A stretch of 64,000 nt of DNA from Paludibacteraceae bacterium (GTDB taxonomy: Bacteria; Bacteroidota; Bacteroidia; Bacteroidales; Paludibacteraceae), in the NCBI GenBank assembly GCA_036734385.1, contig DAIMYQ010000004.1:24375-88374 (forward strand). Direction: 5' to 3'. Shown piece after piece: positions 2,530-29,906 of the stretch (its first letter is position 1; each line of letters starts with the position of its first letter). The translations under genes were made by a program, and so were the position numbers. The notes beneath the pieces were generated by a model. That model saw only the letters and a list, made by a program, of their open reading frames with translations. It was not told where the DNA came from and ran no database searches.

Positions 2530-3681
2530 CTAGAGCAATAGATTCTTCCTGTATTTTTTTTCGTTGATAACGGGATTAGCATAAATACCTAAGTATATTT
2601 GCTGAAGTTCGTTTATGTTGCCATCAAGTAGTGCAAGTTCTTTATGCATAGTAGAAACAAACGAATTCAGGTCTTCTTTTGAGTAGTTAATATTCAAATA
2701 ATCCTGGGTCGAGTTGAGCACATCATATCCCATATAGTTGGTGTCGAAAAGTTTATAGTTTGATTGAATACGCTCGTCAATCATTTTCAATATGGAAGTG
2801 TAAATATCTGTTTTGGGTAGCTTTGCGAGTGGGAGTAAATCTGATTTTTCGATTGGTTTGGTAACGCTCAAGTGTACTTTCCCCTTAAATTGCGTAATGC
2901 CCAACAAAATACTTTGTAAATCTTCGCCCGGGGCTTTTACATATTTCTTATGTTTTGAAATGGATATCTCTTTTACTTTTTGTATGATACAAGGTTCATA
3001 TTGATATGAAATGGATAATGGCGTGATAGCAAGTTCGGCAAAATTTTCCACTAAGTCGGTAGTTCCACTCATTGAAAACATTTTCAGAATTCCTTGATCT
3101 GTCATATCATTGCCGTCTTTTGTTCTTCCATTACGCTGGGCAATCCAGATAGATTCATCTTTCCGTGTAATTGTAAATCGTATGTAATCAGACAAATGGG
3201 AAGAATTCTTATAAAAATCGCGAGAAGCTCCTCCTCGTTCCACTCGAAACATTTTATTTGATTTACCGATATCCACGACAAATTCCGGATTCATCAGATT
3301 GCTGCCAAAGGTAATTTCGGATGTTTTGTATCCATAGTTATTGAGCAACATTTCATGAATGGCAGCATCGAGCAAAATATCTCTGTGGTTAGAAATGAAT
3401 AAATATCTTTTTGATTTGTCTAGTTGGGAAATTCCGTTACACGTTAATCCGGATGTTGTTTTATCAATAATTTTTTGAATGGCAAAATGCATTATCTGCG
3501 TTTGGAATTCGTAAGCAGAATGAATTTTTCGAAACATTTCTTTTACTGTTTCCAAATCTACACCAGGGTAAATAAAGTCGGCTATGTGCTTAATCAGGGG
3601 GTTGTCTGCAATACGGCACATGGCAGCATTTATTTCTCTGTCATAATAGGGGCGGATATCATCAAAACTTGTTTCGTCCAT
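2530..3681 (-). CDS. PlsC/LPLAT-superfamily acyltransferase (383 aa)
   Basis: Contains the FISNHRDILLDAAI acyltransferase block I-like motif and RNGRTKDG (block III-like). It is the last gene on the cluster strand. Confidence 0.7.
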   Translation of the reverse strand: MDETSFDDIRPYYDREINAAMCRIADNPLIKHIADFIYPGVDLETVKEMFRKIHSAYEFQTQIMHFAIQKIIDKTTSGLTCNGISQLDKSKRYLFISNHRDILLDAAIHEMLLNNYGYKTSEITFGSNLMNPEFVVDIGKSNKMFRVERGGASRDFYKNSSHLSDYIRFTITRKDESIWIAQRNGRTKDGNDMTDQGILKMFSMSGTTDLVENFAELAITPLSISYQYEPCIIQKVKEISISKHKKYVKAPGEDLQSILLGITQFKGKVHLSVTKPIEKSDLLPLAKLPKTDIYTSILKMIDERIQSNYKLFDTNYMGYDVLNSTQDYLNINYSKEDLNSFVSTMHKELALLDGNINELQQIYLGIYANPVINEKKYRKNLLL

Positions 3682-3734
3682 TTATTTGTTAGTTGTTTTT
3701 ATAACGAATGTCTTCATTTGTGCGAAAGTACGCA

Positions 3735-4748
3735 TTATTTTGCTTTAACCCATTGTCTTAAGTCCGTAAATAGCTTTTCCTCCATTTCGGCAATGGAATA
3801 AGCAATATCTGCTAAAAAATTCATATTTTTCCCCTGGTTATTTTTGTAATACCTACGAGTTTCAAGTGCAAATTCCTGCCATTTATCAGCGATATTTCTC
3901 ATATAAACGGACAAAGCAAGAAGATCCTCATCCTTTAGATATTCGGCAGATTCTTTTAAAAAACCGGCATACATATATCTATAACCGGATCCTCCTGTCC
4001 CTGCTTCTTCGGATAATTGCAATTGCCATTTAAGGTTATCTAAAGCCCTTCTTTTCCCATATTTTTTTTCATAAATGCGTACTCTTTTAGAGAAGAAATA
4101 GATTCCCTTTACTCCAAAAAATGGAATAGGAATGTCAAGCATTTTATGGCACGTCTCTTTGATTCCTTGAATAATACCTTTCTCTATGTCCATTTTTTCG
4201 GGTACGGATCTTATGTACATCATTTTACCTTTCGGTGAAAAAGCGACTTTGGGGTAGCGGGCTTTTTTAAGGTCGTCTGCTTTGATTTTATGAAGAGAGG
4301 CGTCCGGGAAATGCCAATCGACATCACTTACTATATATTCATCCTCTTCCTTACCGATTATAACAAGAGTATGAGCTGGGAAGCTCCGATCATGTAAAGG
4401 GAAAAACGGTAATAGTTGGATTTCTGCCACAATTCCTGCCGGAATATTTTGATTTAAAAGAGTATCTAATGCTTCCATTGATTTGTCGGGGTTTGCAAAT
4501 TTGCGGATTTCGTAATCGATATGCATCCTTTTTGCAAATTGTTTGAAAACTTTTCCCGGCGTATTTCTGAACAAAGGTGTTTCACATCCATTAAACAGGG
4601 GAAAGGGGAAATGAATGAAATCATAACCGCTGCCTATGCCGAATATCATGAACTCACTCGTTTCATAATGGTAAAATTCCAGCATGTTTTTTATACTTCC
4701 TGTTTCACAGTGAATTCCAAGTTTGTGAGGATAATTTTCTATAATCAT
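3735..4748 (-). CDS. BtrH N-terminal domain-like protein (papain-fold putative acyl-carrier-dependent transferase) with a C-terminal helical domain
   Basis: 337 aa. The N-terminus has GIHCETGSIKNML with a conserved Cys, as in BtrH_N-type domains. It is in operon context with the ABC-2 exporter and the ligase. Confidence 0.55.
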   Translation of the reverse strand: MIIENYPHKLGIHCETGSIKNMLEFYHYETSEFMIFGIGSGYDFIHFPFPLFNGCETPLFRNTPGKVFKQFAKRMHIDYEIRKFANPDKSMEALDTLLNQNIPAGIVAEIQLLPFFPLHDRSFPAHTLVIIGKEEDEYIVSDVDWHFPDASLHKIKADDLKKARYPKVAFSPKGKMMYIRSVPEKMDIEKGIIQGIKETCHKMLDIPIPFFGVKGIYFFSKRVRIYEKKYGKRRALDNLKWQLQLSEEAGTGGSGYRYMYAGFLKESAEYLKDEDLLALSVYMRNIADKWQEFALETRRYYKNNQGKNMNFLADIAYSIAEMEEKLFTDLRQWVKAK

Positions 4749-4930
4749 TTATTTCAGTTGTTTTGTTTTCTATGATGCAAATTCTTTTTTCTTCCATGAA
4801 ATTTTTCTGTACTTCTCTATTTTTCCATTGAATGAGGCTCATTAGAGAGAAATCCAATTATTTGTTATAGTTTGAAGTTGTGGTAAATATGCTACAATGT
4901 GAGCATTTTAATACTATCACTTTATTTTTG

Positions 4931-6208
4931 TCAGCGGTACTTCAAATTTTTATAAAAAATAGCAATGCTGAAACAGATTATTCCGAATGATAATAAATAG
5001 AAACATTCGGGAAGAACATCTATAACAGATGATTTTCTGAGAATGACACTGTAAGAGGCATCTAATGCCCAGTTGAGTGGAGAAATATTGCTTAATATCT
5101 TCAGAAAGTTTGGCATAGCAAAAGTGGGCACCCAAATACCTCCAATGGCAGCTAAAATAACAACAGAGACTGCTCCAAAAACAGAGGCTTGTTGTTGTGA
5201 GGTAGCAATGGCACTGATGGCTGTACCAAAACCAATGGCAGCAAATGCTGCAAAAATAATTACGAAAAGCAATCCATAGAAACTCCCTTGTATTACAAAT
5301 GGGTCTAAGTTAATAAGAGGAAAGAACCACATTCCCATTCCCAAAATAACCAAAAATTGAAGTATGCACACAAAAAGATACAGAAGGACTTTGCTTAAAA
5401 GATAATGAGCAAAAGTGCAGGGCATTGTCATTATTCGATTGAAACTGCCATCTTCTCTTTCTTTGATGATATTGCCGGAAAGAGAGATGACGATGAAAAA
5501 AATAGCAAACAACGTCCATGCCGGTACATTATGTTGTACTGCATTGGGACATAAGTTTTTCGTATTATTTTTACCTACATTGTATTCTTCAATTGTAAGT
5601 CCCTGACAATCTGTTAAGTTTAAATTTTGAATTCTGTTTCCTGAAAATTTTTCGAGTGTTCTGGAAATAATAGCCAAAGAGTATTTGTTTTGTATTTTCA
5701 TACAAAACTCGTTGATGTTACTTTTCAATGTGGCTTGAACAGATGGTTTTACCGTTGGGTCGATAAAGACTTTAATAAAAATACTGTCACTTACAGAAGA
5801 ATCGTTATTTTTTCCGGTAAAAGAATCTCTTAGTTCGTTCGTAAAATTATCAGTAAATTTTTTCGTGGTATTTTGGGGAATATAAATACCAACCAGATAT
5901 TTGCCTTTTGCCACCAAATCTTTTATTTTTTGTTCTGTCATCTCCTTCCCAATATTTTTTGCCAAATGAGTAGAAAAAACGTCCGATTCTTTCAATTCTT
6001 TTTCCATTGTGTTACCGATGCTATCGCAATCTTCATTTAATACTAAAAGAGAAATATCGGTGTTTTTGTCGGCACTCATTACACCGTCTTGCATTGAAGT
6101 CATAATCAGGACAAGAGCCATTGGCATAACGAAGAGTAATATTAATCCGGCTTTGTCGCGAATTAAGAGTAAAAAATCTTTGTATAATAGGGTTAAAAGG
6201 ACTCTCAT
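4931..6208 (-). CDS. ABC-2 type transporter permease
   Basis: 425 aa with an N-terminal TM, a large extracytoplasmic loop and a C-terminal cluster of about 5 TM helices. It sits 1 nt from the upstream ATPase gene. Confidence 0.75.
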   Translation of the reverse strand: MRVLLTLLYKDFLLLIRDKAGLILLFVMPMALVLIMTSMQDGVMSADKNTDISLLVLNEDCDSIGNTMEKELKESDVFSTHLAKNIGKEMTEQKIKDLVAKGKYLVGIYIPQNTTKKFTDNFTNELRDSFTGKNNDSSVSDSIFIKVFIDPTVKPSVQATLKSNINEFCMKIQNKYSLAIISRTLEKFSGNRIQNLNLTDCQGLTIEEYNVGKNNTKNLCPNAVQHNVPAWTLFAIFFIVISLSGNIIKEREDGSFNRIMTMPCTFAHYLLSKVLLYLFVCILQFLVILGMGMWFFPLINLDPFVIQGSFYGLLFVIIFAAFAAIGFGTAISAIATSQQQASVFGAVSVVILAAIGGIWVPTFAMPNFLKILSNISPLNWALDASYSVILRKSSVIDVLPECFYLLSFGIICFSIAIFYKNLKYR

Positions 6209-6209
6209 T

Positions 6210-6956
6210 TTAATCTCGTAATTTTTTACCGGTTAATTTCAGATATACTAGTTCTAAATTGTCACAGTCAGCTGTTTTGCCTATTAATTCGTCAGGAGTT
6301 CCTTCTGCAATTATTTTACCCTCGTCAATGATTCCTACTTTGGTACAAAATTGTTGTGCTTCTTCCATATTATGAGAAGTGTACAAAATCGTTGTTCCGT
6401 AACTGTTAAGCAGTTGTAAATTCTCGATAATTACATTTTTGGATTGAACATCGATTCCTACCGTCGGTTCATCCAAAAGCAATAGATTCGGTTCGTGTAA
6501 TATGCCTACAATCAGATTGATACGTCTTTTCATTCCTCCCGAATAATAATCTACTTTTTTGTTTTTATGGTCTTCTAAACCAAAAAGGTTCAATAGGTAA
6601 GCTATTCTTTTGTTGAGTATTCTATTTTCTATACCGTATATTCCACCAAATATTTTCAGATTTTCTGTTGCGGTAAGCGTTGGAAAAAGAGCAATGTCTT
6701 GTGGTACGATGCCAATGTGTTTGTTTAATTCTTTGCGGTGGTCGGTGAGATTTTTCCCCATGATGGAAATGTTTCCTTGGTCGTAAGAAATTAGCCCTGA
6801 TAATATTTTAACAGTAGTACTTTTCCCGGCACCATTAGGTCCTAAAAAACCATATATTTCTCCGGAATTTACAGAAAAACTGAGTCCGTTCAGGACAGGG
6901 TGTCCTGCGTGTTTGTAGCGTTTCGTTAAGTTTTCAATGCAAAGAAGTGGTGCCAT
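6210..6956 (-). CDS. ABC transporter ATP-binding protein
   Basis: Walker A GPNGAGKST, signature YSGGMKRR, Walker B LLLLDEPT. Confidence 0.92.
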   Translation of the reverse strand: MAPLLCIENLTKRYKHAGHPVLNGLSFSVNSGEIYGFLGPNGAGKSTTVKILSGLISYDQGNISIMGKNLTDHRKELNKHIGIVPQDIALFPTLTATENLKIFGGIYGIENRILNKRIAYLLNLFGLEDHKNKKVDYYSGGMKRRINLIVGILHEPNLLLLDEPTVGIDVQSKNVIIENLQLLNSYGTTILYTSHNMEEAQQFCTKVGIIDEGKIIAEGTPDELIGKTADCDNLELVYLKLTGKKLRD

Positions 6957-6967: not shown

Positions 6968-8263
6968 TTATTTTCTCTTATCAATGAATTTAGTTGGCTT
7001 GCGGTTAATTTCGGGGAGTTGAATTTTTCTGATTATATCAATACTTTCAAACTTGATACTCGGAGCGACACGTATTTTTGCACGGAATCGATTTTTTAAG
7101 TCTTTCACTATCTCTTCATTTGGGTTTTGGCATCCGACAATGACGAGTACATCATCCATTCCTATATCATTGATGGAAACCTCTACCAAATAATTTTCTA
7201 CGTAATCGACATTGTCAAGTACATCGAAAATGGCAGCAGGGTAAAGAGTTGTTCCTTTGTATTTAATCATCTGATTTTTACGTCCGACGATCGGGCTAAT
7301 TCTCATTGTTGTTCTTCCGCAGCTGCAAGGTTCGTAGTGAAAACGGCACATATCGCCTGTTTTAAAACGAATTAAAGGCATGCCTTCTACGCCTAAGGTC
7401 GTGATGGTTAATTCTCCGCATTCTCCCTCCGAAACCGGATTGTCGAGGTCATCTACCAATTCGCAAATGATTAACTCCGGGTGATGGTGTCCTCCTTGAC
7501 CTGCTTTGCATTCGCAGAAAGAAGTGCTCATTTCTGTTGAGGCATAGGTAGAGTAAAGATCAATATTCCATTTTTCTTTAATTTTTTTCCCCAATAGGTT
7601 AAGAGAAAAATCTTCCTCGCGAAGGTTCTCTCCGATGCACACTGCTTTTTTGATACTTGATTTTTTATAGTCAATATTATGCTCTTCCGCGTATTTGATA
7701 ATTCGTAAGATAAATGAAGGTACACAAATGATCGTGTCAGGCGAAATACGATTAATTGTATCCCATTGTAATTCGGGAATACCGTTTCCAACGCGAATGA
7801 CGCTTGCGTGCATCATTCTTATTCCCAAGAAATAGGCGAAACCTGCCATAAAACGTTTGTCGAGGGTTGTCATCAACTGAAAAATATCTCCCTGTTTTCC
7901 GTCGGCACAGGTAAAGGAAATGGCTTCATTATACGCCAATCTGTCCAAGTCTTTATCTGTCAGGGCAAATGTAGTGGGAGTACTCAATGTACCGGAAGTA
8001 GTAATGTAGTCTACAATTTTTGATTTCTCAACGCAAATAAAATCTTGATTATTCAGTTGCAAATCTTCTTTTCTTGTAAAAGGAATGTAGCGTAAATCTT
8101 CTAGCGTTTTAATTTTTTTTACATTAATCTTCTCTTTTTGGAATATGGATTGGTAATATTTTGATTTTTCGTTCGCATATTCAAGTGCTTGTCTTAACTT
8201 TTCTTCTTGAAATTTTTTAATAATTTCCAAGGGTTGTTTTTCAATTTCAGGTACAAAATTCAT
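6968..8263 (-). CDS. Phenylacetate-CoA ligase (PaaK)/F390-synthetase-like adenylate-forming enzyme
   Basis: 431 aa with ITTSGTLSTPTTF (adenylation P-loop-like motif) and YASTEMS (YGxTE-like). Size and architecture are typical of the PaaK family. Confidence 0.75.
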   Translation of the reverse strand: MNFVPEIEKQPLEIIKKFQEEKLRQALEYANEKSKYYQSIFQKEKINVKKIKTLEDLRYIPFTRKEDLQLNNQDFICVEKSKIVDYITTSGTLSTPTTFALTDKDLDRLAYNEAISFTCADGKQGDIFQLMTTLDKRFMAGFAYFLGIRMMHASVIRVGNGIPELQWDTINRISPDTIICVPSFILRIIKYAEEHNIDYKKSSIKKAVCIGENLREEDFSLNLLGKKIKEKWNIDLYSTYASTEMSTSFCECKAGQGGHHHPELIICELVDDLDNPVSEGECGELTITTLGVEGMPLIRFKTGDMCRFHYEPCSCGRTTMRISPIVGRKNQMIKYKGTTLYPAAIFDVLDNVDYVENYLVEVSINDIGMDDVLVIVGCQNPNEEIVKDLKNRFRAKIRVAPSIKFESIDIIRKIQLPEINRKPTKFIDKRK

Positions 8264-8270: not shown

Positions 8271-9128
8271 TTATTTGGTAAAATTCTTATTCAACCATTC
8301 TTTAAATGTTATTTTCCAATTGGCGGCTTCCCCTCCACGTTTTTCACTTAAACCGTAGCCGTGTCCACCTGTTTCGTATAGTAAAAAATGGTGTTTAATA
8401 TTTTTATTTGTCAATGCTTTATCTAATTCCACACTGTTTTGGTATTTTACCACCGGGTCATTTTTAGCGGTTACTAAAAATACGGGTGGCATATCATTGG
8501 GTATTTGTAACTCCATAGAGAATGTATCCATCATTGCTTTGGTGTAATTTTTCCCTAGCAAATTTTTTCGTGAGCGTATATGTGCTAAACTGTCTTGCAT
8601 AGATACAACGGGATATATAGGTACAATAAAGTCGGGACGTAAACTTATGTCGGTATTGATGCCTACTTTTTTCAAATAACTTGTTTGATGAAATACTCCT
8701 GCCATAATAACTAGGTGTCCACCGGCAGAAAATCCCATTACTCCCAGCTTGTTTACGTTAATGCCATAGGAATGTGCATTTTCTCGTACAAATTGAATAG
8801 TTCGTTGCAAATCCTCGATCATCGCGGGATGGTGATAGCCTCGCATGCCAACGCGATAGCGTAAAACAAAGGCAGTGATCCCTTGACTGGTTAGCCATTT
8901 GGCAACATCGTAGCCTTCGTGTTGTAGCCCTAAATGATGATAACTTCCTCCCGGACAAATAATTACACTTATGCCGTTGCGTAGTGAGTCGGGAGTTTCG
9001 TACACGTACAATCTTGTTTTTTCTTTTTCCATTCCCTTTATGCCTTCCCAAAGGTAAATGGGTTTGCTTGCAAAGGCAATATTAGTGGTTGTCACTATTG
9101 CTATTACAAATAGAATAATTTTTTTCAT
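8271..9128 (-). CDS. Secreted alpha/beta-hydrolase (esterase/lipase-like)
   Basis: Signal peptide MKKIILFVIAIVTTTNIAFA, oxyanion-like CPGGSYHH, nucleophile elbow GFSAGGH, and a C-terminal GGHGY. Confidence 0.75.
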   Translation of the reverse strand: MKKIILFVIAIVTTTNIAFASKPIYLWEGIKGMEKEKTRLYVYETPDSLRNGISVIICPGGSYHHLGLQHEGYDVAKWLTSQGITAFVLRYRVGMRGYHHPAMIEDLQRTIQFVRENAHSYGINVNKLGVMGFSAGGHLVIMAGVFHQTSYLKKVGINTDISLRPDFIVPIYPVVSMQDSLAHIRSRKNLLGKNYTKAMMDTFSMELQIPNDMPPVFLVTAKNDPVVKYQNSVELDKALTNKNIKHHFLLYETGGHGYGLSEKRGGEAANWKITFKEWLNKNFTK

Positions 9129-9130
9129 TT

Positions 9131-9508
9131 TTATTGCTGAGAAATATAACGTTTCATTTCTTCACTTGTCAATTGTTTGTAGTGCGGATTAACAAATTCT
9201 CCATTTTCCAAATCAAAGTTAACTTGAAAAAATTCTTCGTCGTAGAAGGAAAGTTTCGAATTTGTATTTGGGTTGCATTCAATGTAGATGATGTCATGTT
9301 TATTAAATCCTTTTTTTTCACAAATTTGTTTGGCAAGTAATCCCCCTGCATATGTTACTGATGAACCCGGGTTTTCTTGGTATAGCTCGGTTACTATAAT
9401 TATTTTTTTGTCTTTCGTTTCTATTACTTTCAATCCACATTTTGAAGGCAAATTCCATTGACCTTCAAAATTGAATATTTCGTCGTAATATTTTTCTGGC
9501 ACTTTCAT
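9131..9508 (-). CDS. Hypothetical protein (125 aa); no recognisable motif
   Basis: Intact ORF 2 nt upstream of the hydrolase gene and 26 nt downstream of the radical SAM gene on the same strand. It is called coding from operon packing only. Confidence 0.5.
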   Translation of the reverse strand: MKVPEKYYDEIFNFEGQWNLPSKCGLKVIETKDKKIIIVTELYQENPGSSVTYAGGLLAKQICEKKGFNKHDIIYIECNPNTNSKLSFYDEEFFQVNFDLENGEFVNPHYKQLTSEEMKRYISQQ

Positions 9509-9534
9509 AATACAAGTTAAGTTAAATAGTTTTT

Positions 9535-10809: not shown

Positions 10810-10832
10810 AATTTTATTGTATTAATTGTTAT

Positions 10833-12577: not shown

Positions 12578-12582
12578 TATTG

Positions 12583-18600: not shown

Positions 18601-18616
18601 AATATAACATTTAAAA

Positions 18617-22126: not shown

Positions 22127-23269
22127 TTAACTTATTTTTTTAAGCATACATACTGCATTGCAACCACCAAATCCGGAGACCATTTTAATACAACGGGTTA
22201 TCTCTTTTGTTTTTGTTTCTGTAATTATATGTAATGGATGACTAACGCCGCATGTTTCGTATCCTAAACTTTTGATGATTGTGTTTTGCCTTAAAGATTC
22301 TGCAGAGATGATTAATTCCAATAATCCTGCAGCACCAAGTGTGTGTCCAAAATATCCTTTTAAGCTTTGTACCGGAATTTCCGTCATGCCCATTCTCCAA
22401 AGGGCTATTGATTCCATTTCGTCGTTATAAGGAGTGGCTGTTCCATGAGCATTTACAAATCCTATTTCCTCCGCTTTTCTACCTTTCATTACAGATTGCA
22501 ACGCTAAAAATAACCCTTCTCCTGTTCGCGATGGACCTGAAATATGGTTGGCATCATTGGAAATAGCTTCATTTTCAATAGTAATGGTTCCTTTGGGGAG
22601 ACAGTTTCCTTTATCATTGATTTTCAATATTATAGTAGCAGCTCCCTCACCTAGATTTAGACCTACACGGTTTGCGTCAAAGGGTTTACACGCTTTTTGC
22701 GATAACGCTTTAAAGGATTGAAATCCTGATATAATAAATTTCGAAATAATGTCTGCTCCTACCACAATAACAGTATCGTAATTGCCTGATGTCAGCATTC
22801 TTTTAGCAACAATTGTCGCAGAAATACCTGAAATACATGCATTAGAAACAATAATAGGAGTATTAGGGTTTTTAAAATAGTTCGCAATAACTTGAGCTGA
22901 ATGCCATAAATAGGCTTGTTCATTGTTTGTGTCTTGTTCCAAGAAAGCAATATTTCCCTTTGTCGTAGAAAGAATGAAAAGTGTTCTAGAATCAGTTGTG
23001 TTTACGAGTGAGTTTTTTATTGCATTATGAACCGAAAGAATAGCCAGTTTTTCAAATCGAGAACATTCCAAATTTGATATAAGTGCAAATTGTGCATTCA
23101 ATTTTTCGGCGTCTATTCGTGAAGCATAAAAGCCTTCGGGAACATCTAATGTATTTTCTTTATAATAATGTAAGCCTGACTTTCCGGATACAACGGCACA
23201 CATATTTTCCTCAGTAGTAAAACCAAGAGAAGAAATAATATTGTTTGATTGTATATAAACTGTCGACAT
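22127..23269 (-). CDS. Beta-ketoacyl-ACP synthase, catalytically complete
   Basis: VSNACISGISA (Cys), VNAHGTATPYND and YFGHTLGAAG (His, His). Confidence 0.87.
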   Translation of the reverse strand: MSTVYIQSNNIISSLGFTTEENMCAVVSGKSGLHYYKENTLDVPEGFYASRIDAEKLNAQFALISNLECSRFEKLAILSVHNAIKNSLVNTTDSRTLFILSTTKGNIAFLEQDTNNEQAYLWHSAQVIANYFKNPNTPIIVSNACISGISATIVAKRMLTSGNYDTVIVVGADIISKFIISGFQSFKALSQKACKPFDANRVGLNLGEGAATIILKINDKGNCLPKGTITIENEAISNDANHISGPSRTGEGLFLALQSVMKGRKAEEIGFVNAHGTATPYNDEMESIALWRMGMTEIPVQSLKGYFGHTLGAAGLLELIISAESLRQNTIIKSLGYETCGVSHPLHIITETKTKEITRCIKMVSGFGGCNAVCMLKKIS

Positions 23270-23275: not shown

Positions 23276-23695
23276 TTATAAAAGTCCGTTATCCTTTTTC
23301 CAATTTTCGTAAAATTCGGGATTATTCCATACCAAGACATAATCTTTGTCTAGAAAAACTTGAATGCTTTTTCCTGTTGCAATTAATGATTTATCTTTTG
23401 AATTGAAGATTTTATACTCAAAACAAAGTTTGGCGGCTTTGGTTTCTTTATAATGAATTTCAACAATAGCTTTGTCGCCATAGACGAGAGGCTTTTTGTA
23501 GCTAAAATCCAGATTGACAAGTGGGGCATAATAGCCCTCTCCAAAAATTTTTAGATAGCCGAGATTGTATTTCTTGCCAAATTCCTCGCGTGCGTCTTCA
23601 AAATATTTTGCATAAGAACCATGCCATACAATTCCCATGGAATCCACTTCGCTAAAACGTACTTCTATTTCTTTACTTGCAAAAAGATTTTTCAT
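23276..23695 (-). CDS. 4HBT/YbgC-type hotdog acyl thioesterase
   Basis: 139 aa with RFSEVDSMGIVWHGSYAKYFEDAREEF, typical of 4-hydroxybenzoyl-CoA-thioesterase-fold enzymes. Confidence 0.75.
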   Translation of the reverse strand: MKNLFASKEIEVRFSEVDSMGIVWHGSYAKYFEDAREEFGKKYNLGYLKIFGEGYYAPLVNLDFSYKKPLVYGDKAIVEIHYKETKAAKLCFEYKIFNSKDKSLIATGKSIQVFLDKDYVLVWNNPEFYENWKKDNGLL

Positions 23696-24111
23696 TGTAA
23701 CGATATTTTCATTTCACATTCGGCAACTTTTTCTTCGTCAATGGTAACCGCCGCATTAATCAATGTAATATTAAAAACTTCACTTTGTATATTTATCTGA
23801 GTGACCATTTTTTCTCCTATTTTTGGCAAGCGATAAATGCTCAGGTTTTTGATAGATCCTATAAATCCGATTCGTACTTTGCCGGAATTGGCTACCTTGT
23901 TGATGTATCCCATTCGGGCGGCACAAGTTTGTGCTATGTTCTCGATTATTCCCGATTCAATTAGTTGCCCGTCTTTCGAAAATATATTGTCTGCCAACAC
24001 TTTAAAATCTGTTTTTGTCATTGTATCGTCACATTCTAATAATCTGTCAATCATTACAAAAGGACGTTGTTGAGGTAAAAGTGTTTGTATGTCTATCTTT
24101 GAAATCTCCAT
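23692..24111 (-). CDS. Hotdog-fold dehydratase-like protein (FabZ/ApeI-like)
   Basis: 139 aa with LLPQQRPFVMIDRL, resembling the LPHRxPFLLVD motif of FabZ-type proteins. ATGA overlap with the thioesterase gene. Confidence 0.65.
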   Translation of the reverse strand: MEISKIDIQTLLPQQRPFVMIDRLLECDDTMTKTDFKVLADNIFSKDGQLIESGIIENIAQTCAARMGYINKVANSGKVRIGFIGSIKNLSIYRLPKIGEKMVTQINIQSEVFNITLINAAVTIDEEKVAECEMKISLQ

Positions 24112-24117: not shown

Positions 24118-25185
24118 TTATTTAGGCACACACTTCAATACAGTATGACTTACGCCAATTTTATCATAGGTTTGTTCTACTTTTAATCCTGCTTTTTCAA
24201 TCAGATTGAGCATGTCTTGCGTGTGATACATCTGACTACAACCGTTGGCAATACAAGTAAAATATAAACTTGTTGCTACTAAGCTATAGCGTCCGGCATC
24301 GGTTCGTTGATTGTCCCAAAATGTTTCCATGATGTACACCGCACCATTTTTATTAATCGCAGACTTTGCTTTTTTCAATAATTCAATAATATCTTCTTGT
24401 GAAAAACAGTCAAGAAACTGACTCATCCATACAATATCATATCCTGTTGGGTAAGCCTTTGAGTGGTCAAGTAAATTAATAGGATAGCCATCTATTCTAT
24501 CCATAAATCCGTGAGCTTCAATATTTTTGTAGGCATCTGCCAATTGACCGGGTAGGTCAAGAATAGTAACCTTAACATCTTTGTTAAATTCAGCACATTT
24601 GATAGAAAATTTGCCGGTGTTACCCCCTACATCCATAATTCTTTTAGGATTTGACTCGAACAAAATGGGTAAGACAATGGGGAATGATTCGTCAGAATAA
24701 TAATGGTCAAAGCCAAACCAGCTTTTGCGTACCTGTTCAGGCAGTTCTGATAGGGCTTCGTATACCGTACTCCAATTTCCAAATACTTTTAAGCCTTCAG
24801 GTTTGCCTGTCTTGACAGCTTCTTCCAGTTTAAAGAACCCAAGGTAATTAACGTCTTGTGTAAAGTCCATATTTACCTTTGTAAGATCGTCGGTTAATAC
24901 AAACCAACCTGTTTTAGTAATAAAAAATTTATGTTCTTTTGCATAAACCATTTCAAGGCTTAATCCTGCCTCTAGGAGAACTTTAACGCCATATACAGAA
25001 AGATTTAATTCTTTCGCAACTTCTTCAATAGTTATCCCTTCTTTATGGTCTTTTAGACATTCTAAAATACCTAAATCTCTCAACGACCGTGCGGCTTGAA
25101 ACATAATGGGGGCAAATGCAATTTTTTGAGCATCGAACTGTGCTTGAAAGGCTGATTTTTTATCATCACCAAAATTGTATGGCAT
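24118..25185 (-). CDS. SAM-dependent methyltransferase (O-methyltransferase family 2-like, with an N-terminal winged-helix/dimerisation domain)
   Basis: RIMDVGGNTGKFS (motif I) followed by VTILDLPGQL. Confidence 0.8.
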   Translation of the reverse strand: MPYNFGDDKKSAFQAQFDAQKIAFAPIMFQAARSLRDLGILECLKDHKEGITIEEVAKELNLSVYGVKVLLEAGLSLEMVYAKEHKFFITKTGWFVLTDDLTKVNMDFTQDVNYLGFFKLEEAVKTGKPEGLKVFGNWSTVYEALSELPEQVRKSWFGFDHYYSDESFPIVLPILFESNPKRIMDVGGNTGKFSIKCAEFNKDVKVTILDLPGQLADAYKNIEAHGFMDRIDGYPINLLDHSKAYPTGYDIVWMSQFLDCFSQEDIIELLKKAKSAINKNGAVYIMETFWDNQRTDAGRYSLVATSLYFTCIANGCSQMYHTQDMLNLIEKAGLKVEQTYDKIGVSHTVLKCVPK

Positions 25186-25212: not shown

Positions 25213-26133
25213 TTATATGGTTGTTTTTGGAGTATCCGTTTGCCAAAAGTCGTAAAAGTTATACCATTGTAAAGGGTACAATTGTAAAATGCCTTCGAGT
25301 TTGGAAGTGTATTCTCGCATAAGCAATTCTACTTGTTGTTGTTTAGAATGGGTTTCCAAATTTTCTACTTCTAAGGGACGTACATAGCATTTGTATTTCT
25401 TAAATCCGTTTTGCATCACAAACATTGAAATCATAGGGACTTGTAATTTGACAGCCAATTGGAATGCACTGGTAGGAAAGTTTGCAGGAGCACCGAAAAA
25501 TGTCATGGATAAATTTTTAGAACCTTCGTACACTCTGTCTCCTGCCATGCTGACCAAATCAGCGTTTTTTAAGGCATTGTTTATTGCAAAAATGTGTGAG
25601 AATGAGTCAATTACGGGAATCATGCACACGTTATTTTTTGCTAAAATTCGAGCTCTTTGTTTTTGCATTTCTGCTGATTCTCCACCAAAAACAATTACAT
25701 ATAATTGTTTTATTTTCTGGGTAAGAAAATATCCCACAATCTCAGCACTCCCAATATGCGAATTTAGAATAATTGCCCCTTTTTCAGCATTGGCAACAAT
25801 TTTGTCATAATATTCTTGTCCGTCTACTTCAACTGTATATTCATTCTTTCTTCCGGCAAAAAGGGCGAATTTATCAATAAGAGTTTTACCAAATAAAAAA
25901 TGATTTTTGTAAGTGCTTATAATAGCTTTGCTTTTAGAATATTGTTGTCTTTTTCTAAAATATTGATAAATAGTATTAGTTGCTTTGTAATTAATTGCCA
26001 GGTAAAACAATATTACGACACTTACAATTGCGTAACTTAACCTAATACTCCCATATTTGAAATAAAGGAAGAGGCATTTCTGACCAAAATTTCCTCCATC
26101 GGTTTTTCCTTGCCATTCTTTATTTCTTGCCAC
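25213..26133 (-). CDS. LpxL/HtrB-like lysophospholipid (lipid A-type) acyltransferase family protein
   Basis: N-terminal TM (AIVSVVILFYLAI) and an NSHIGSAEI HX4E-type motif. 306 aa. Confidence 0.65.
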   Translation of the reverse strand: MARNKEWQGKTDGGNFGQKCLFLYFKYGSIRLSYAIVSVVILFYLAINYKATNTIYQYFRKRQQYSKSKAIISTYKNHFLFGKTLIDKFALFAGRKNEYTVEVDGQEYYDKIVANAEKGAIILNSHIGSAEIVGYFLTQKIKQLYVIVFGGESAEMQKQRARILAKNNVCMIPVIDSFSHIFAINNALKNADLVSMAGDRVYEGSKNLSMTFFGAPANFPTSAFQLAVKLQVPMISMFVMQNGFKKYKCYVRPLEVENLETHSKQQQVELLMREYTSKLEGILQLYPLQWYNFYDFWQTDTPKTTI

Positions 26134-26384
26134 TATGCGTTTACCTTTTTTTCTATATAATCATAGAAAGCACCAAGCGTGGTTACCCCCGCCATTTCTT
26201 CGGCCTTAATTTTAAATCCGAAATTCTTTTCTACAATTACAACGATGTCGACGAAGTCAAGACTGTCAATGCCTAAGTCTTCTTTTAGTTTTGCGTTACT
26301 ACAAATGACCGCAGGATCAACTTCAATTTCTTCTACTAAAAAACCGTTGGTAATCCGTTCAATTTCTTCTCTTGTCATTGCCAT
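26133..26384 (-). CDS. Acyl carrier protein
   Basis: 83 aa with the LGIDSLDFVDIV Ser motif. Confidence 0.9.
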   Translation of the reverse strand: MAMTREEIERITNGFLVEEIEVDPAVICSNAKLKEDLGIDSLDFVDIVVIVEKNFGFKIKAEEMAGVTTLGAFYDYIEKKVNA

Positions 26385-26407: not shown

Positions 26408-27628
26408 TTATTTAATTTTCTTGACGATTAGGGCACTATTAGTTCCTCCAAATCCGAATGAATTTGATAGAAAAACATCCATGTTTTTAGCAATCGTTTG
26501 AGGAATAATATTCAGTTTTGCAGAGTTTTCATCTGGCGTTTCAAAATTAATATTTGGTGCAATAAATGAGTTTTGCATCATTAAAGTAGAATAAATAATT
26601 TCGCTTGCACCTGCCATCCAGCATTCATGTCCAGTCATTGATTTGGTCGAGCTTACAGGTGTTTTATATTCTCCAAATAAAGAATTAATCGCGATAGCTT
26701 CATACATATCTCCCAACGGCGTAGAAGTGGCATGAGCATTAATATAATCAATTTCTTTTGCAGCTAATCCGGCATCTTTCAGTGCTCTCGACATGGCAAT
26801 ATATGACCCCTCGTTGCTTGGTTGTGAAATATGTCCACCATTAGAAGAAAATCCGTATCCACATACTTCTGCAATTATGTTTGCTCCACGTTTTATTGCG
26901 TGATCGTAATCTTCCAATATCAAACTAGCAGCACCACCACTGGGAACTAAACCATCTCTGTTTGCATCGAATGGGCGAGAAGCTTTTGTGGGGTCATCGG
27001 TTTTAATGGAAAACGCACTCAAAGCATCAAAACTGCCCATGGATAGGTAGTTCGTTTCCTGAGCTCCTCCACATAAAATCATATCCTGCAAGCCGTTTTT
27101 TATAAAGAAGTAACCCAAACCTATTGAATGTGAACCACTTGCACAAGCAGCACTAATGGTCATATTTATCCCCTTTAGCTTGAATATAACCGATAAATTC
27201 ATGGTTACAGTGGAATTCATAGATTGAAAAATAGCTCCTGACCCCATCAATGTAGTGTCTTTTTTCTCAAGAACGATAGAGTGTGCTTCAATTACCGCTT
27301 TTGCTGAAGAATCGTTACCATAAAAAATCCCCACTTCATTATTCTCTAAATAATCCATGTCGATTTTGGCTTGTTCCATAGCTTCTCTTGTCGCGATATA
27401 GGCGTATTCTCCTTCTTCTGCCAATCCTATACGCATACGCCTGTCTAGTAATCCTTTTAAATTTGGGCGTTCTACTATTCCTGTAAGCGGAGAACGGTAG
27501 CCATATTCTGTTCGTATGGAATCAATACCAATACCGGATTTTCCCTTATATAACGAATCTTTAACTTCTTCTAAATTTTTACCGATACATGAATAAATTC
27601 CCATGCCTGTAATTACAACTCTTCCCAT
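26408..27628 (-). CDS. Beta-ketoacyl-ACP synthase (FabF-like), catalytically complete
   Basis: ISAACASGSHS (Cys), INAHATSTPLGD and MTGHECWMAGA (His, His). Confidence 0.9.
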   Translation of the reverse strand: MGRVVITGMGIYSCIGKNLEEVKDSLYKGKSGIGIDSIRTEYGYRSPLTGIVERPNLKGLLDRRMRIGLAEEGEYAYIATREAMEQAKIDMDYLENNEVGIFYGNDSSAKAVIEAHSIVLEKKDTTLMGSGAIFQSMNSTVTMNLSVIFKLKGINMTISAACASGSHSIGLGYFFIKNGLQDMILCGGAQETNYLSMGSFDALSAFSIKTDDPTKASRPFDANRDGLVPSGGAASLILEDYDHAIKRGANIIAEVCGYGFSSNGGHISQPSNEGSYIAMSRALKDAGLAAKEIDYINAHATSTPLGDMYEAIAINSLFGEYKTPVSSTKSMTGHECWMAGASEIIYSTLMMQNSFIAPNINFETPDENSAKLNIIPQTIAKNMDVFLSNSFGFGGTNSALIVKKIK

Positions 27629-27637
27629 AACATTAAA

Positions 27638-28366
27638 TTAAGTATACAATCCTCCATTAATAGAAATTACTTCACCTGTAATGTATGCTGAATTATCAGA
27701 TGCTAAAAAGGAAACCAATTTTGCCACTTCTTCCGCAGTACCAAAACGATTTACAGGAATCATTTCTTTCAGAGCTTTTTCGTCCAAATCTTGTGTCATG
27801 TCAGTAGCAATAAAACCGGGAGCAACGGCATTTACAGTAACTCCACGTTTGCCAACTTCTTGAGCTAATGACTTGGTAGCACCAATTAGTCCCGCTTTTG
27901 CAGCTGAGTAATTAGTTTGTCCGGGCAATCCTTTTATTCCTGATAAAGACGTTACGGTAATGATACGACCAAATCGTTTGGTCAACATATCTTTTAATAC
28001 TCTTCGAGTTACATAGAAAAATCCGTTCAAATGAGTTTTGAGGAGATCTTCCCATTGGTTATCTTTCATGAAAACCATCACGGCATCGTCTCGATAACCG
28101 GCATTATTCACTAAAACAGCCATGTAATCTTCAGTATGTTTTTCTTGCCATGTAACCATTGCATTATCAACATCTTCTACATTAGCAACGTCAAATCTCA
28201 ATATTTCGGCAGTTCCTCCAATTTTTTCAACTTCCGCTTTTGTTTCCAAAGCAGCATCTTCATTGGATAAATAATTAATAATAACGGGATAGCCCAAACG
28301 TGCCATTTCAATACAAATAGCTCGTCCAATTCCTCTTGAACCTCCCGTAACTAAAGCATATTTCAT
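27638..28366 (-). CDS. 3-oxoacyl-ACP reductase (FabG-type SDR)
   Basis: TGGSRGIGRAI, NNAG and YSAAKAG motifs. 242 aa. Confidence 0.92.
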   Translation of the reverse strand: MKYALVTGGSRGIGRAICIEMARLGYPVIINYLSNEDAALETKAEVEKIGGTAEILRFDVANVEDVDNAMVTWQEKHTEDYMAVLVNNAGYRDDAVMVFMKDNQWEDLLKTHLNGFFYVTRRVLKDMLTKRFGRIITVTSLSGIKGLPGQTNYSAAKAGLIGATKSLAQEVGKRGVTVNAVAPGFIATDMTQDLDEKALKEMIPVNRFGTAEEVAKLVSFLASDNSAYITGEVISINGGLYT

Positions 28367-28367
28367 T

Positions 28368-29906
28368 TTATAATGCTATTTGATTACTCATTAAGTATGT
28401 TTTGATTCTCTCAATGTCTTTGTACTTAGGAGTGTCTTCGACAAAAACCGGCACCAACGCACGCAATTTTTCGTACACCGTTTTTGTTTGTGAAGCCATC
28501 TTCTTTTGTACGGAAATATTGTCAATTCCTTGAATTAGTGCAATATAATAAATAGAAAGCACTTCATATGAATTCTCAATTATTTTACGAGTGATAAGGG
28601 CCGAATTGGTTCCCATGCTCACAATATCCTGGTTCTCATTGTTGTTCGGAATGCTATGAACATAATTTGGAAACGATAACGTTTGGCATTCTGCCGTGGT
28701 AGACGTTGCGGTAAACTGAACACCTTGCATACCAAGATTTAATCCTAAAACACCAAGATTGACAAATGGAGCAAATTTTTCGTTTAGTTGAGCATTTAAT
28801 ACAAAATTCAATTGACGCTCAATAAGCATTGTCATTTTGGTAACAACAATTTTTAACTTGTCCATTTCCAATGAAATATAATCACCATGAAAATTTCCAC
28901 CATGGTATACATTTTGCGTCTCGACATCCACAATAGGATTGTCATTGGCAGAATTAACTTCTTCTATTACAATTTGTTCAGTGTTTTTGATAGTATCATA
29001 GATTGGACCAAGCACTTGAGGAACACATCGTAAAGAATAATACTCTTGAACTTTTTCTTTAATTACCTTTTCCGTTACTTTTCGGGTATATAAATAGTCT
29101 TTACGCTTCTTGATTAATGAACTGTCTTTAAGAATTGCACGCATTTTGTCAGCCACTTTATTTTGACCTTCGTGGGCTTTTACTGAATTTAACTCTTTAG
29201 AAAATCCATCGTCGTAAGAATCAACTAATTCATTGATGATAGACGATGCCATTAACGACCAATTAAAAAGGTTTTTTGCATATAAAAGATTCACAATGGC
29301 AATTCCTGTCATCATAGAGGTTCCGTTTATTAACGAAAGACCTTCTCGGATGTAAATAGTAATGGGTTTTAAGTTACAGGCTTTCATTGCTACTTCTGTC
29401 GGAACAACTTCTCCTTTGAAGTATACTTCTCCTTCGCCGATTAAAGATAACGCTAAATGAGAAAGTTGAACCAAATCGCCACTGGCTCCTACGCCACCAT
29501 GTTCATAGATTACAGGGGTTATATTATTATTAATAAAGTCTTTTAATAAAATGGCACTTTCAGAATGAATTCCTGATTTCGCTTGTAAGATATTAATTAA
29601 TCGGCAAATCATTGCCGCCTTGACATATAATGGAGGAATGTGGTTTCCAACGCCGGAGCTATGACTTCTTATCAGATTATATTGTAATTGTTTTCTGTCT
29701 TTATCAGAGATTCTGTGTTGGGCCATTGGACCGAAACCGGTAGTTATTCCGTAGATTACTTTTCCTTCGGCAAATTCTTCTAAGAAATTAAAACATTGTT
29801 GAACTTTGTCTATACTTTCCCGTGTTAATGATATTTTTTCATCGTTAAATAAAACATCATAAAAAAAATCTAATGAAAGATTTTCATTCCCAATTTCTCG
29901 TTCCAT
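28368..29906 (-). CDS. MIO-dependent aromatic amino acid ammonia-lyase (HAL/PAL/TAL family); context suggests tyrosine ammonia-lyase
   Basis: GGVGASGDLVQLSH carries the Ala-Ser-Gly MIO triad (nt 29478-29486). 512 aa. It is the first gene of the polyene operon, as in flexirubin clusters. Confidence 0.9.
   Translation of the reverse strand: MEREIGNENLSLDFFYDVLFNDEKISLTRESIDKVQQCFNFLEEFAEGKVIYGITTGFGPMAQHRISDKDRKQLQYNLIRSHSSGVGNHIPPLYVKAAMICRLINILQAKSGIHSESAILLKDFINNNITPVIYEHGGVGASGDLVQLSHLALSLIGEGEVYFKGEVVPTEVAMKACNLKPITIYIREGLSLINGTSMMTGIAIVNLLYAKNLFNWSLMASSIINELVDSYDDGFSKELNSVKAHEGQNKVADKMRAILKDSSLIKKRKDYLYTRKVTEKVIKEKVQEYYSLRCVPQVLGPIYDTIKNTEQIVIEEVNSANDNPIVDVETQNVYHGGNFHGDYISLEMDKLKIVVTKMTMLIERQLNFVLNAQLNEKFAPFVNLGVLGLNLGMQGVQFTATSTTAECQTLSFPNYVHSIPNNNENQDIVSMGTNSALITRKIIENSYEVLSIYYIALIQGIDNISVQKKMASQTKTVYEKLRALVPVFVEDTPKYKDIERIKTYLMSNQIAL

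Follow-up and report, generated by a model that had tools for sequence, protein, structure and literature searches.

The window analyzed here is a 64-kb stretch of DNA from a wastewater Paludibacteraceae (Bacteroidales), a host whose lineage is anaerobic. Positions 2530-29906 of the window hold exactly 29 ORFs, which all lie on the minus strand and are tightly packed, as the initial annotation had described (a single-strand block of ~29 genes and 27 kb). Neighboring ORFs are separated by -44 to +27 nt, apart from two gaps of 53 nt (3682-3734) and 182 nt (4749-4930). The tight junctions and overlaps reported earlier were also read on the reverse complement, with ATGA at 23692-23695, 17397-17400, and 17026-17029 and TAATG at 11082-11086. 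Minus-strand tRNA-Leu(taa) and tRNA-Gly(gcc) at 30390-30556 (ARAGORN, Rfam) mark the upstream boundary. Gene content was assigned by Pfam and NCBIfam HMM scans. Twenty-eight of the 29 ORFs are intact and keep their catalytic motifs, and the remaining one is an 83-aa pseudogene remnant. The earlier gene inventory agreed with the HMM matches but lacked a BD-FAE esterase (8271-9128) and a 125-aa protein (9131-9508). Judged from its genes, the block is a genuine 27-kb operon-like cluster for an aryl-polyene membrane pigment of the flexirubin type. Intact copies occur in dozens of assemblies, from wastewater and elsewhere, and in a Paludibacteraceae MAG.

The first gene (28368-29906) encodes FlxA, a tyrosine ammonia-lyase (TAL) of the MIO enzymes predicted to supply the 4-coumarate starter. 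It matched PF00221 (1.9e-155) and scored 826 bits with the FlxA_rubin_TAL equivalog NF053541 (cut-off 700). FlxB (27638-28366) is an SDR ketoreductase (NF053542, 393 bits, cut-off 340), and FlxY (6968-8263) is a PaaK-like 4-coumarate-CoA ligase (NF053551 equivalog, 708 bits, cut-off 520), an enzyme that was characterized by Schoener et al. 2014 (PMC3992019). Together with the periplasmic carrier LolA2 (17956-18633; NF053544, 195 bits, cut-off 125), these are the four proteins that pass flexirubin-specific NCBIfam equivalog cut-offs, which bears out the earlier assignment to flexirubin-type aryl-polyene clusters.

Three complete Cys-His-His ketosynthases had been predicted, and the motifs were located in the proteins at the FlxC position (26408-27628; PF00109 and PF02801; Cys162/His299/His334), the FlxI position (22127-23269; Cys in an SNACISG motif, His275/His309), and the FlxN position (20039-21232; Cys158/His291/His326). 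Of the two Cys-less partners proposed with them, one is a 355-aa CLF-like protein at the FlxO position (18967-20034; weak PF13723 and PF00109 matches), in which motif inspection found no active-site Cys. The second is a 203-aa protein at the FlxL position (21515-22126) that lacks the Cys motif and gave no match in Pfam and NCBIfam scans. Its assignment as a putative "condensing enzyme"-like protein comes from position and conservation, as all related loci have it at this position, with 36-47% identity; FlxL is a "condensing enzyme" in Schoener's annotation table (PMC3992019). Two ACPs matched PF00550, one at the FlxD position (26133-26384, DSL serine) and one at the FlxM position (21251-21508, DSI serine; NF006617, 87.7 bits, cut-off 70). 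An ApeP-like hotdog dehydratase at the FlxF position (23692-24111) matched FabZ weakly, and the identical copy of its gene in locus L001 matched the ApeP-like family PF22817. The second hotdog dehydratase, FabA/ApeI-like and at the FlxS position (17026-17400), matched PF07977, and its homologues match the ApeI-like family PF22818. A 4HBT thioesterase (23276-23695; PF13279 and PF03061) lies at the FlxH position. The FlxJ-like SAM methyltransferase (24118-25185) scored 531 bits with NF053543, slightly below the cut-off of 560, and comparison with locus L013 places it in the slot that DarA-DarB occupy in classical single clusters.

Genes for lipid handling, envelope functions, and export are interspersed with the polyene genes. 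They encode an LpxL-like lipid acyltransferase (25213-26133; FlxE/ApeD-like; PF03279, 5e-13), a LolB2-like lipoprotein (17397-17999; 47 bits with NF053540, short of the cut-off of 60; lipobox LFGSSC), and an EamA/ArnE-F-like small membrane protein (18617-18973; PF00892, ArnE/ArnF matches), which is a marker of the subtype described below and takes the place that the polysaccharide deacetylase FlxP has in classical clusters. The GT2 glycosyltransferase at the FlxT position (PF00535, 4e-27) was listed as 16265-17065; since an ATGA overlap lies at 17026-17029, its start is probably ATG at 17029 rather than TTG at 17065. The FlxU position holds a fusion of an MMPL/RND exporter and a PlsC-type acyltransferase (12583-16263; PF03176 and PF01553; HAE3 and HpnN matches), followed by a CrtI/RetSat-like FAD oxidoreductase at the FlxV position (11084-12586; PF01593). 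The 83-aa remnant (10833-11084) aligned to a second CrtI-like paralogue in locus L010, with 53% identity to the N-terminus of that intact 501-aa protein and internal deletions. A B12-binding/radical-SAM enzyme specific to the subtype (9535-10809; CX3CX2C at 173-180; PF02310 and PF04055 matches below cut-off) shows the highest conservation within the cluster, the best 120 of its >6000 homologues being at least 81% identical. The 125-aa protein (9131-9508) has no Pfam or NCBIfam family match; it always lies directly after the radical-SAM gene and is syntenic in L010, L015, L016, L017, and L075 with 56-69% identity. The BD-FAE-family alpha/beta-hydrolase (8271-9128; PF20434, 7.7e-27) is feruloyl/acetyl-esterase-like, carries a signal peptide and a GFSAG motif, and occupies the FlxW position of classical clusters. 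Beyond FlxY lie a DarI-like ABC ATPase (6210-6956; PF00005, darI annotation) and a DarJ-like ABC-2 permease (4931-6208; PF12698 and PF01061, darJ annotation). The terminal gene of the subtype (2530-3681) encodes a 383-aa PlsC-superfamily protein, which had been proposed as a third LPLAT domain; this holds, given the HX4D motif NHRDILLD and the PF01553 match of 23/23 aligned homologues. A homologue lies directly 3' of FlxY in L016, L019, and L025.

The DarH-like protein (3735-4748) is a predicted Cys-His-Asp transacylase of the BtrH/CcbD/CtaG type (PF14399 and PF16169; 281 bits with NF053550, short of its cut-off of 300). C14 and H126 are invariant and D142 is near-invariant. Its AF2 model (pLDDT 92.6) matched AziU3/U2, CtaG, and CcbD in Foldseek with TM 0.63-0.72, and with the triad conserved the model matches carrier-protein-dependent transacylases. 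The whole-protein fold and an N-terminal Cys with the His/Asp triad are shared with these enzymes, whereas sequence identity is only 11-17%. To our knowledge, the characterized transacylases of this type form amides, with amines as acceptors.

HMM scans of essentially all ORFs found no DarA or DarB in the 64-kb window, and a tblastn search of all six frames with authentic DarA, DarB, and DarG queries found none of the three, which agrees with the initial annotation. With the left flank included, none of the three was found from about -6.3 kb to +64 kb. FlxW/C45 and KAS III were likewise absent among the window ORFs in HMM scans. FlxW has been proposed as the enzyme that links the polyene to the resorcinol.

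The closest parallel in gene order is flxA-flxY of Chitinophaga pinensis (Cpin_1853-1877; Schoener et al. 2014, PMC3992019), a member of the Chitinophagales, whereas the window comes from an anaerobe lineage of Bacteroidales. Both begin with the TAL gene, have the FlxY ligase near the end, contain a FlxJ-type methyltransferase, and lack darAB within the cluster; the window is collinear through A-E and then F, H, I, L-O, Q-V, and Y. It lacks flxG, flxK (halogenase), flxP (polysaccharide deacetylase), flxW (a C45 Ntn acyltransferase), and flxX (PPTase), and adds the EamA-like, B12/radical-SAM, 125-aa, BD-FAE esterase, and 383-aa LPLAT genes and the DarI/J/H-like cassette. The cluster of Flavobacterium johnsoniae (Fjoh_1075-1110; McBride 2009; table in PMC3992019) shares the TAL, the ligase, the KS/ACP/DH set, and LpxL-like acyltransferase, GT2, MMPL-AT, RetSat-like, LolA, ABC/ABC-2, and BtrH-like genes. 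However, its LpxL-like acyltransferase and thioesterase genes flank DarA, DarB, and DarG, where the window has the methyltransferase, and unlike the window it carries a C45 acyltransferase, halogenase, and deacetylase. The ape clusters of Xenorhabdus doucetiae and E. coli (Grammbitter et al., bioRxiv 10.1101/2020.12.19.423268) share a type II KS/CLF pair, ApeI/ApeP-like dehydratases, two ACPs, an LpxL-like acyltransferase, a glycosyl/acyl-transferase, LolA/LolB-like proteins, and an RND exporter. They occur in Proteobacteria, differ in starter chemistry from the TAL and 4-coumarate ligase of the window, and lack radical-SAM, BD-FAE esterase, DarH, and ABC-2 genes. In that system, ApeD, ApeJ, LolA-LolB-like, and RND proteins act in lipid anchoring of aryl polyenes, and the acyltransferase, GT2, LolA, and MMPL homologues of Xenorhabdus build and export a GalNAc-phosphoglycerolipid anchor (bioRxiv 10.1101/2020.12.19.423268). 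This likeness supports lipid anchoring and outer-membrane export for the window cluster.

The same architecture recurs in many metagenome contigs of Bacteroidales and Lentimicrobiaceae, and no dar genes lie within reach on these contigs. Its order is methyltransferase in the DarAB slot, EamA after CLF, FlxV, radical SAM, the 125-aa protein, BD-FAE, FlxY, and LPLAT, and its typical additions are the EamA-like protein, B12/radical-SAM enzyme, 125-aa protein, secreted esterase, 383-aa LPLAT, and DarH-like transacylase. It is present in independent organisms (e.g., L010, L015, L016, L017, L019, L036, L047, and L075), between which most proteins are only 40-57% identical. Dar genes were found in 0/7 subtype loci in which the relevant slot was covered, against 7/14 classical-type loci (Fisher p = 0.047, with low counts and loci reaching no further than 10 kb). 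The classical-type metagenome loci L043, L080, and L097 likewise lack DarAB beside the polyene genes. By its gene order, the window cluster belongs to a widespread, distinct architectural variant of flexirubin-type clusters without nearby dialkylresorcinol (DAR) genes. It probably makes a flexirubin-family aryl-polyene (APE) pigment, and its subtype occurs in anaerobic Bacteroidales.

By family assignment, FlxA deaminates tyrosine to 4-coumarate, which FlxY converts to 4-coumaroyl-CoA. Homology and collinearity with flxA-flxY and ape suggest that this starter is loaded onto an ACP. Iterative type II extension by the three ketosynthases with the CLF-like and FlxL-like partners, FlxB, and the ApeP/ApeI-like pair would yield aryl-polyenoyl-ACP, with ring decoration by the FlxJ-like methyltransferase predicted on similar grounds. 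ACP 2 probably carries a second acyl chain, like ApeF. Release of the polyenoyl chain from the ACP and its transfer to an envelope anchor would follow, with the DarH-like transacylase, LpxL-like acyltransferase, PlsC-like domain, 383-aa LPLAT, and GT2 as candidate enzymes. The MMPL exporter, ABC-2 pump, EamA-like protein, and LolA2/LolB2 may transport the product to the outer membrane.

The KS, ACP, ketoreductase, and hotdog proteins have the folds of FabF/B, AcpP, FabG, and FabZ, so that a set of housekeeping fatty-acid/lipid A synthesis genes rather than a specialized cluster could be imagined. This reading, which the initial annotation had named as a possible refutation, is refuted by the HMM scores and has practically no probability left: every ketosynthase falls far below the FabB/FabF equivalog cut-offs (e.g., 376 bits vs 630 and 353 vs 494), whereas FlxA, FlxB, LolA2, and FlxY exceed flexirubin-specific ones. 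It is also very improbable that the cluster is silent or decaying, having lost its DAR arm, with other genes becoming pseudogenes and no defined product. The 83-aa remnant would fit such decay, but the remaining 28 ORFs are intact and retain their catalytic motifs, 68 contigs carry an identical TAL (index: 118 collection blocks), and the architecture is conserved despite the low identity between organisms. The conservation of the radical-SAM enzyme implies strong purifying selection, which also argues against decay.

A DAR-free product had been argued from the absence of DarA and DarB in the window. This is weak evidence and such a product remains unproven, as C. pinensis has its flxA-flxY polyene cluster and its darAB cluster at separate loci (PMC3992019), and one 4.84-Mb complete genome carries DarG-H-I-J without DarAB within 10 kb and DarB on the same contig. 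The earlier view that the acyltransferases and GT2 substitute for the DAR arm does not stand, because flxE, flxT, flxU, flxQ, and flxR homologues are present in classical flexirubin clusters making DAR esters (PMC3992019). The window may thus be the polyene (flx) arm alone of a classical flexirubin pathway, with an unlinked darAB(G) supplying DAR and DarH or another acyltransferase esterifying it. This alternative, to which we give about one chance in three, is favored by these split and scattered loci, by L043, L080, and L097, and by DarB in MAGs labelled Bacteroidales (among the matches listed, the best 120 of >8000 in the DarB family search). The dar-associated DarH/DarI/DarJ cassette kept inside the window could also mean that DAR is still handled. 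However, in C. pinensis and every classical locus DarH/I/J accompany DarG, and usually DarAB too, which is not the case in the window. We lean only slightly toward a final product other than a classical DAR ester. A non-DAR product is still plausible because FlxW and DarG are missing as well, because the recurrent subtype differs from classical loci in dar gene content, and because DarH is uncoupled from DarG. In such a product, the partner of the aryl polyene could be a lipid or glycolipid, like that of APELs, or else an amine or alcohol that serves as the DarH acceptor. DarH adjoins DarG in 13/13 other loci, in contrast to 0/4 loci of the window's subtype.

The cluster consists of 29 consecutive minus-strand ORFs that span positions 2530-29906, and the ORF listing contains no plausible plus-strand gene that interrupts them. 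Junctions between ORFs range from -44 to +27 nt, with two exceptions of 53 nt (3682-3734) and 182 nt (4749-4930). The initial annotation had placed ATGA and TAATG overlaps at several junctions, and each was found at its stated position. At 182 nt, the space that separates the ABC-2 permease and DarH-like genes is wider than any other in the cluster and may be the location of an internal promoter; one assembly calls a 45-aa ORF in it (4032-4169 of locus L007). A scan of the 3′ end of the cluster for sigma-70 promoters and terminators gave results that at best equaled those of shuffled sequence, with a consensus that is inapplicable to Bacteroidota. The upstream boundary is a pair of minus-strand tRNA genes, tRNA-Leu(taa) and tRNA-Gly(gcc), at 30390-30556, about 480 nt upstream of the tyrosine ammonia-lyase (TAL) gene. 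A mechanically called ORF at 30206-30607 is spurious, because it overlaps these tRNA genes. The position of these tRNA genes at the border of the cluster could point to an old insertion site, although the G+C content of the cluster (about 0.33-0.38 throughout) is the same as that of its flanks. On its downstream side, the cluster is bounded by a divergent Dabb-domain gene, which is followed by the gene for PBP1A.

Pfam and NCBIfam scans covered every ORF of the cluster. Four proteins exceed the cut-offs of curated flexirubin-specific equivalog families, namely the FlxA-type TAL (NF053541, 826 bits against a cut-off of 700), the FlxB reductase (NF053542, 393 against 340), LolA2 (NCBIfam, 195 against 125), and the FlxY-type 4-coumarate-CoA ligase (NF053551, 708 against 520). 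Three others narrowly miss theirs: the FlxJ-family methyltransferase (531 against 560 bits), DarH (NF053550, 281 against 300), and LolB2 (47 against 60). The polyene arm is present as a type II set of ketosynthases (KS), KS partner (CLF), acyl carrier proteins (ACP), and dehydratases together with FlxB, collinear with flxC-flxO. The Cys-His-His triad is kept in all three full ketosynthases, and a 355-aa CLF-like protein has no active-site Cys. The export module comprises LolA2 and the sub-cut-off LolB2, with a GT2 and an MMPL+PlsC protein recognized by Pfam. Judged sensu Cimermancic/Grammbitter, the cluster also belongs to the ape family, as it encodes a KS-CLF pair, an ApeI/ApeP-type dehydratase pair, ACPs, an LpxL-like protein, glycosyl- and acyltransferases, LolA/LolB-like proteins, and an RND exporter; the ApeP-like Pfam match lies on 23692-24111, and the ApeI-like match was obtained on homologues of 17026-17400. 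The gene vocabulary listed in the initial annotation was thus confirmed and sharpened. That annotation had named housekeeping fatty acid synthesis as one finding that would overturn its reading. The best KS scores are 376 bits against the FabB cut-off of 630 and 353 bits against the FabF cut-off of 494, and no FabB, FabF, or FabH equivalog was recognized; the KS proteins are therefore not those of a housekeeping type II system. An 83-aa ORF at 10833-11084 (minus strand) begins with a GxGxxG motif and is a decayed remnant of the N-terminal part of a second CrtI-like paralogue. The intact 501-aa gene is found in a related Paludibacteraceae MAG (L010, 1469-2974); identity to it is 53%, with internal deletions in the ORF.

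The comparison with CHARACTERISED clusters rests on the supplementary gene tables of Schoener et al. 2014, which describe flxA-flxY and the separately located dar cluster of C. pinensis as well as the one cluster of F. johnsoniae (PMC3992019). The window is collinear with C. pinensis flxA-flxY. Its order is TAL, SDR, KS, ACP, LpxL-like acyltransferase, methyltransferase, dehydratase, thioesterase, KS, FlxL-like protein, and ACP, and continues with KS, CLF, an EamA-like gene, LolA, LolB-like, dehydratase, GT2, MMPL-acyltransferase, and a RetSat/CrtI-like gene, ending after further genes with FlxY. Several components of the classical clusters are missing from the window: FlxG, the FlxK halogenase, the FlxP deacetylase, the FlxX PPTase, FlxW, DarA, DarB, and DarG. 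FlxW is a C45/Ntn acyltransferase proposed by Schoener et al. to join the polyene to the dialkylresorcinol (DAR; PMC3992019). In turn, the window adds the EamA-like gene, a B12/radical-SAM enzyme, a conserved 125-aa protein, a secreted BD-FAE esterase, and a 383-aa LPLAT acyltransferase. It also adds a cassette of ABC, ABC-2, and DarH-like genes, whose C. pinensis equivalents, darI, darJ, and darH, are located in the dar cluster (PMC3992019).

The absence of the DAR arm was examined with DarA, DarB, and DarG queries from two classical loci, L012 and L013, which were located through DarH homologues. The L013 DarB scores 599 bits against the NF053539 cut-off of 550, and the DarG queries match NF053545/NF053536. 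Six-frame tblastn with these proteins found no match in the window, in the Paludibacteraceae MAG locus L008, which extends about 6.3 kb to the left of the window, or in L010. HMM scans found no KAS III domain in any ORF of the window, and the remaining ORFs are only housekeeping genes or unknowns. The earlier statement that the window has neither DarA nor DarB is therefore correct. No PF03417-type match to FlxW occurs in any ORF of the window, and the FlxW position is occupied by the radical-SAM enzyme, the 125-aa protein, and the BD-FAE esterase.

The radical-SAM enzyme (9535-10809, minus strand), a putative member of class B (cobalamin-dependent), carries the canonical CX3CX2C motif as CKFSCYPC at residues 173-180, and both of its domains score below the Pfam cut-offs (B12-binding PF02310, 27.7 against 32.1 bits; PF04055, 25.6 against 29.5). 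A sequence search of the PDB gave only marginal matches, to AprD4 and a radical SAM core protein. The enzyme has more than 6000 homologues; the 120 best of them show identities of 81% or more and include MAGs labelled Lentimicrobiaceae, Bacteroidales, and Paludibacteraceae. Between organisms, its sequence identity is 81-85%, compared with mostly 40-60% for other cluster proteins and 65-83% for one ketosynthase (KS_C) and FlxY. Judged by these identities, the constraint on this protein is unusually strong for an enzyme of secondary metabolism. The 125-aa protein shows no BLASTP similarity to DarG, and its single-sequence AlphaFold2 model (pLDDT 51.6) is unusable. The BD-FAE esterase (8271-9128, minus strand) has a GFSAG motif and a clear N-terminal signal peptide; it is therefore predicted to act in the periplasm or envelope and is not a like-for-like cytoplasmic stand-in for FlxW. 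The 383-aa terminal protein matched no Pfam or NCBIfam family at default thresholds. It contains an HX4D motif (NHRDILLD), and PF01553 was matched by all 23 sampled members of its family, which comprises 1540 representatives at 50% identity; it is thus an LPLAT, the third one counted in the initial annotation. BLASTP found no similarity that would make it a divergent DarA or a DarH paralogue, and the PDB search gave nothing significant for it or for the DarH-like protein.

The DarH-like protein is so named, and not called a DarH equivalog, on its score below the NF053550 cut-off. It has the papain-like fold and the Cys-His-Asp triad of BtrH/CcbD/CtaG-type enzymes. In an alignment of 28 homologues, His13-Cys14-Glu15 and His126 are invariant and Asp142 is near-invariant, and the deposited CtaG variants C11A, H128A, and D144N are counterparts of these conserved residues. 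The AlphaFold2 model (pLDDT 92.6) matches AziU3/U2, CtaG, and CcbD over its whole length with TM scores of 0.63-0.72, and a crystal structure of CcbD together with a PCP domain exists. The model supports a carrier-protein-dependent transacylase that would work through a Cys acyl-enzyme, and a role in unloading an acyl chain from an ACP would fit.

The architecture of the window recurs in other genomes. The closest species-representative genome is a Paludibacteraceae MAG (CAXXCL010000003.1), in which the gene order is the same and the DarH-like protein is 98% identical. When genome contigs were scanned with the DarH-like protein, the only locus obtained was that of the Paludibacteraceae MAG. 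An identical TAL is present on 68 contigs (118 collection blocks in the index), many of them from wastewater. The contexts of radical-SAM homologues repeat a module of MMPL-acyltransferase, CrtI-like protein, radical SAM, a protein of about 120 aa, BD-FAE, and FlxY. In L016, L019, and L025, a homologue of the 383-aa LPLAT lies directly 3′ of the FlxY of this module, and the LPLAT is therefore a gene of the cluster; in the lineage of the window, the ABC/ABC-2/DarH cassette sits between FlxY and LPLAT. Loci of the subtype differ in where DarH lies and in how many copies they have. In L015 and L017, DarH is found elsewhere in the cluster. The related MAG locus L010 (GCA_016938015.1) has three tandem DarH-like paralogues after the ABC-2 permease (9013-12057); in the window, a single DarH-like gene and the LPLAT occupy this place.

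A CLF alignment, used to scan JGI metagenomes, gave 80 loci, and a tblastn panel sorted the typable ones into two types, the readable context being the window and 10-kb loci. The EamA-type has an EamA-like gene after CLF, a methyltransferase between the LpxL-like acyltransferase and the dehydratase, and the radical-SAM module, and includes the window, L036, L047, and L075. The deacetylase-type has the classical architecture. When the count is limited to loci in which the relevant slot is covered, a dar gene was found in none of seven EamA-type loci and in 7 of 14 classical-type loci (Fisher p = 0.047). DarH adjoins DarG in all 13 other loci, whereas it does so in none of four independent subtype loci. 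Three classical-type JGI loci (L040, L048, and L078) have a duplicated KS-CLF pair and, downstream, a trio of a KAS III-like protein (22-24% identical to DarB), a different radical-SAM protein (29-30%), and a KS, which may be another variant of a resorcinol or alkyl arm.

The starter steps, from TAL to the 4-coumarate ligase, can be regarded as good as shown, given equivalog membership and the published enzymology of FlxA and FlxY (PMC3992019). Homology and collinearity suggest that type II iterative elongation would then yield an aryl-polyenoyl-ACP. The initial annotation had proposed that the multiple acyltransferases and the GT2 attach the polyene to a lipid or glycolipid anchor in place of the DAR. 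In ape clusters, acyltransferase, GT2, LolA/LolB, and RND genes build and export an APE-bearing GalNAc-phosphoglycerolipid (bioRxiv 10.1101/2020.12.19.423268), and classical flexirubin clusters have these genes as well (PMC3992019). Since they are common to both kinds of cluster, they indicate envelope anchoring but provide no evidence that the DAR has been replaced.

A final product without DAR is favoured at slightly better than even chances, because DarA, DarB, DarG, and FlxW are jointly absent, because this absence is systematic across the subtype, and because subtype-specific genes fill the exact position of FlxW. A split classical flexirubin pathway, with its DAR genes elsewhere in the genome, is a serious competitor whose probability falls somewhat short of even. 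The dar genes of C. pinensis form a separate cluster (PMC3992019), and the window keeps the DarH/I/J cassette. A DarB profile search gave more than 8000 matches, and the best 120 of these include MAGs labelled Bacteroidales; among these 120, no match lies on a contig as long as that of the Paludibacteraceae MAG or of the window. In the 4.84-Mb genome of L009 (ERZ22147072), an ApeP-like dehydratase, DarG, DarH, ABC, and ABC-2 occur with no DarA or DarB within 10 kb, and the DarB cluster P0217 includes the same 4,837,155-nt contig; dar genes can therefore be dispersed in one genome. A more far-reaching form of the DAR-free reading is tentative and rather unlikely. It holds that anaerobic Bacteroidota (Bacteroidales and Lentimicrobiaceae of gut, rumen, and wastewater) share an undescribed flexirubin-like pathway whose product would be a new class of DAR-free aryl-polyene envelope lipids. 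DarAB, DarG, and FlxW would then have been replaced by the very highly conserved B12/radical-SAM enzyme, its 125-aa partner, a periplasmic feruloyl-esterase-like hydrolase, and a dedicated LPLAT, and a DarH-type transacylase would have been added in some lineages.

We know of no product described for flexirubin-like clusters of anaerobe lineages, and literature searches found neither such a product nor a description of the architecture of the window. To our knowledge, flexirubin-like clusters in Bacteroidales are already known and the architecture documented here is undescribed. Few biosynthetic gene clusters of bacteria are considered as widespread as the aryl-polyene clusters (bioRxiv 10.1101/2020.12.19.423268), genome mining routinely flags flexirubin-like clusters in gut Bacteroides such as Bacteroides xylanisolvens (PMC12940132), and much of the diversity of flexirubin clusters is acknowledged to be still undescribed (PMC10734526). 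A coherent subtype that is marked by the radical-SAM, 125-aa, BD-FAE, EamA-like, and 383-aa LPLAT genes, with no dar genes in reach, is a concrete target for elucidating the structure of its product and for testing what the BtrH-like DarH enzyme acylates. If darAB lies elsewhere in the genome, the cluster becomes just one more split flexirubin cluster.

The genes past the tRNAs are housekeeping genes and encode DUF3109, TonB-like, and FtsX-type permease proteins, rbfA, an M16 peptidase, DHPS, cdaA, fumA, and metK. The flanks fit an anaerobic fermenter, with a butyryl-CoA:acetate CoA-transferase, a class I fumarase, and QueG. In a plus-strand region at 47761-51643, the gene for a TMEM260-like protein O-mannosyltransferase of 1086 aa precedes that for a polysaccharide deacetylase (51038-51643). 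The latter was considered as a displaced FlxP; housekeeping genes surround it, 21 kb separate it from the cluster, and its identity to the FlxP-like deacetylase of classical clusters is only 31%, so that it is probably unrelated to the cluster. Directly 5′ of metK (44969-46249), a SAM-II (long-loop) riboswitch is present at 44833-44892 on the plus strand, with 58.7 bits against a gathering score of 44.
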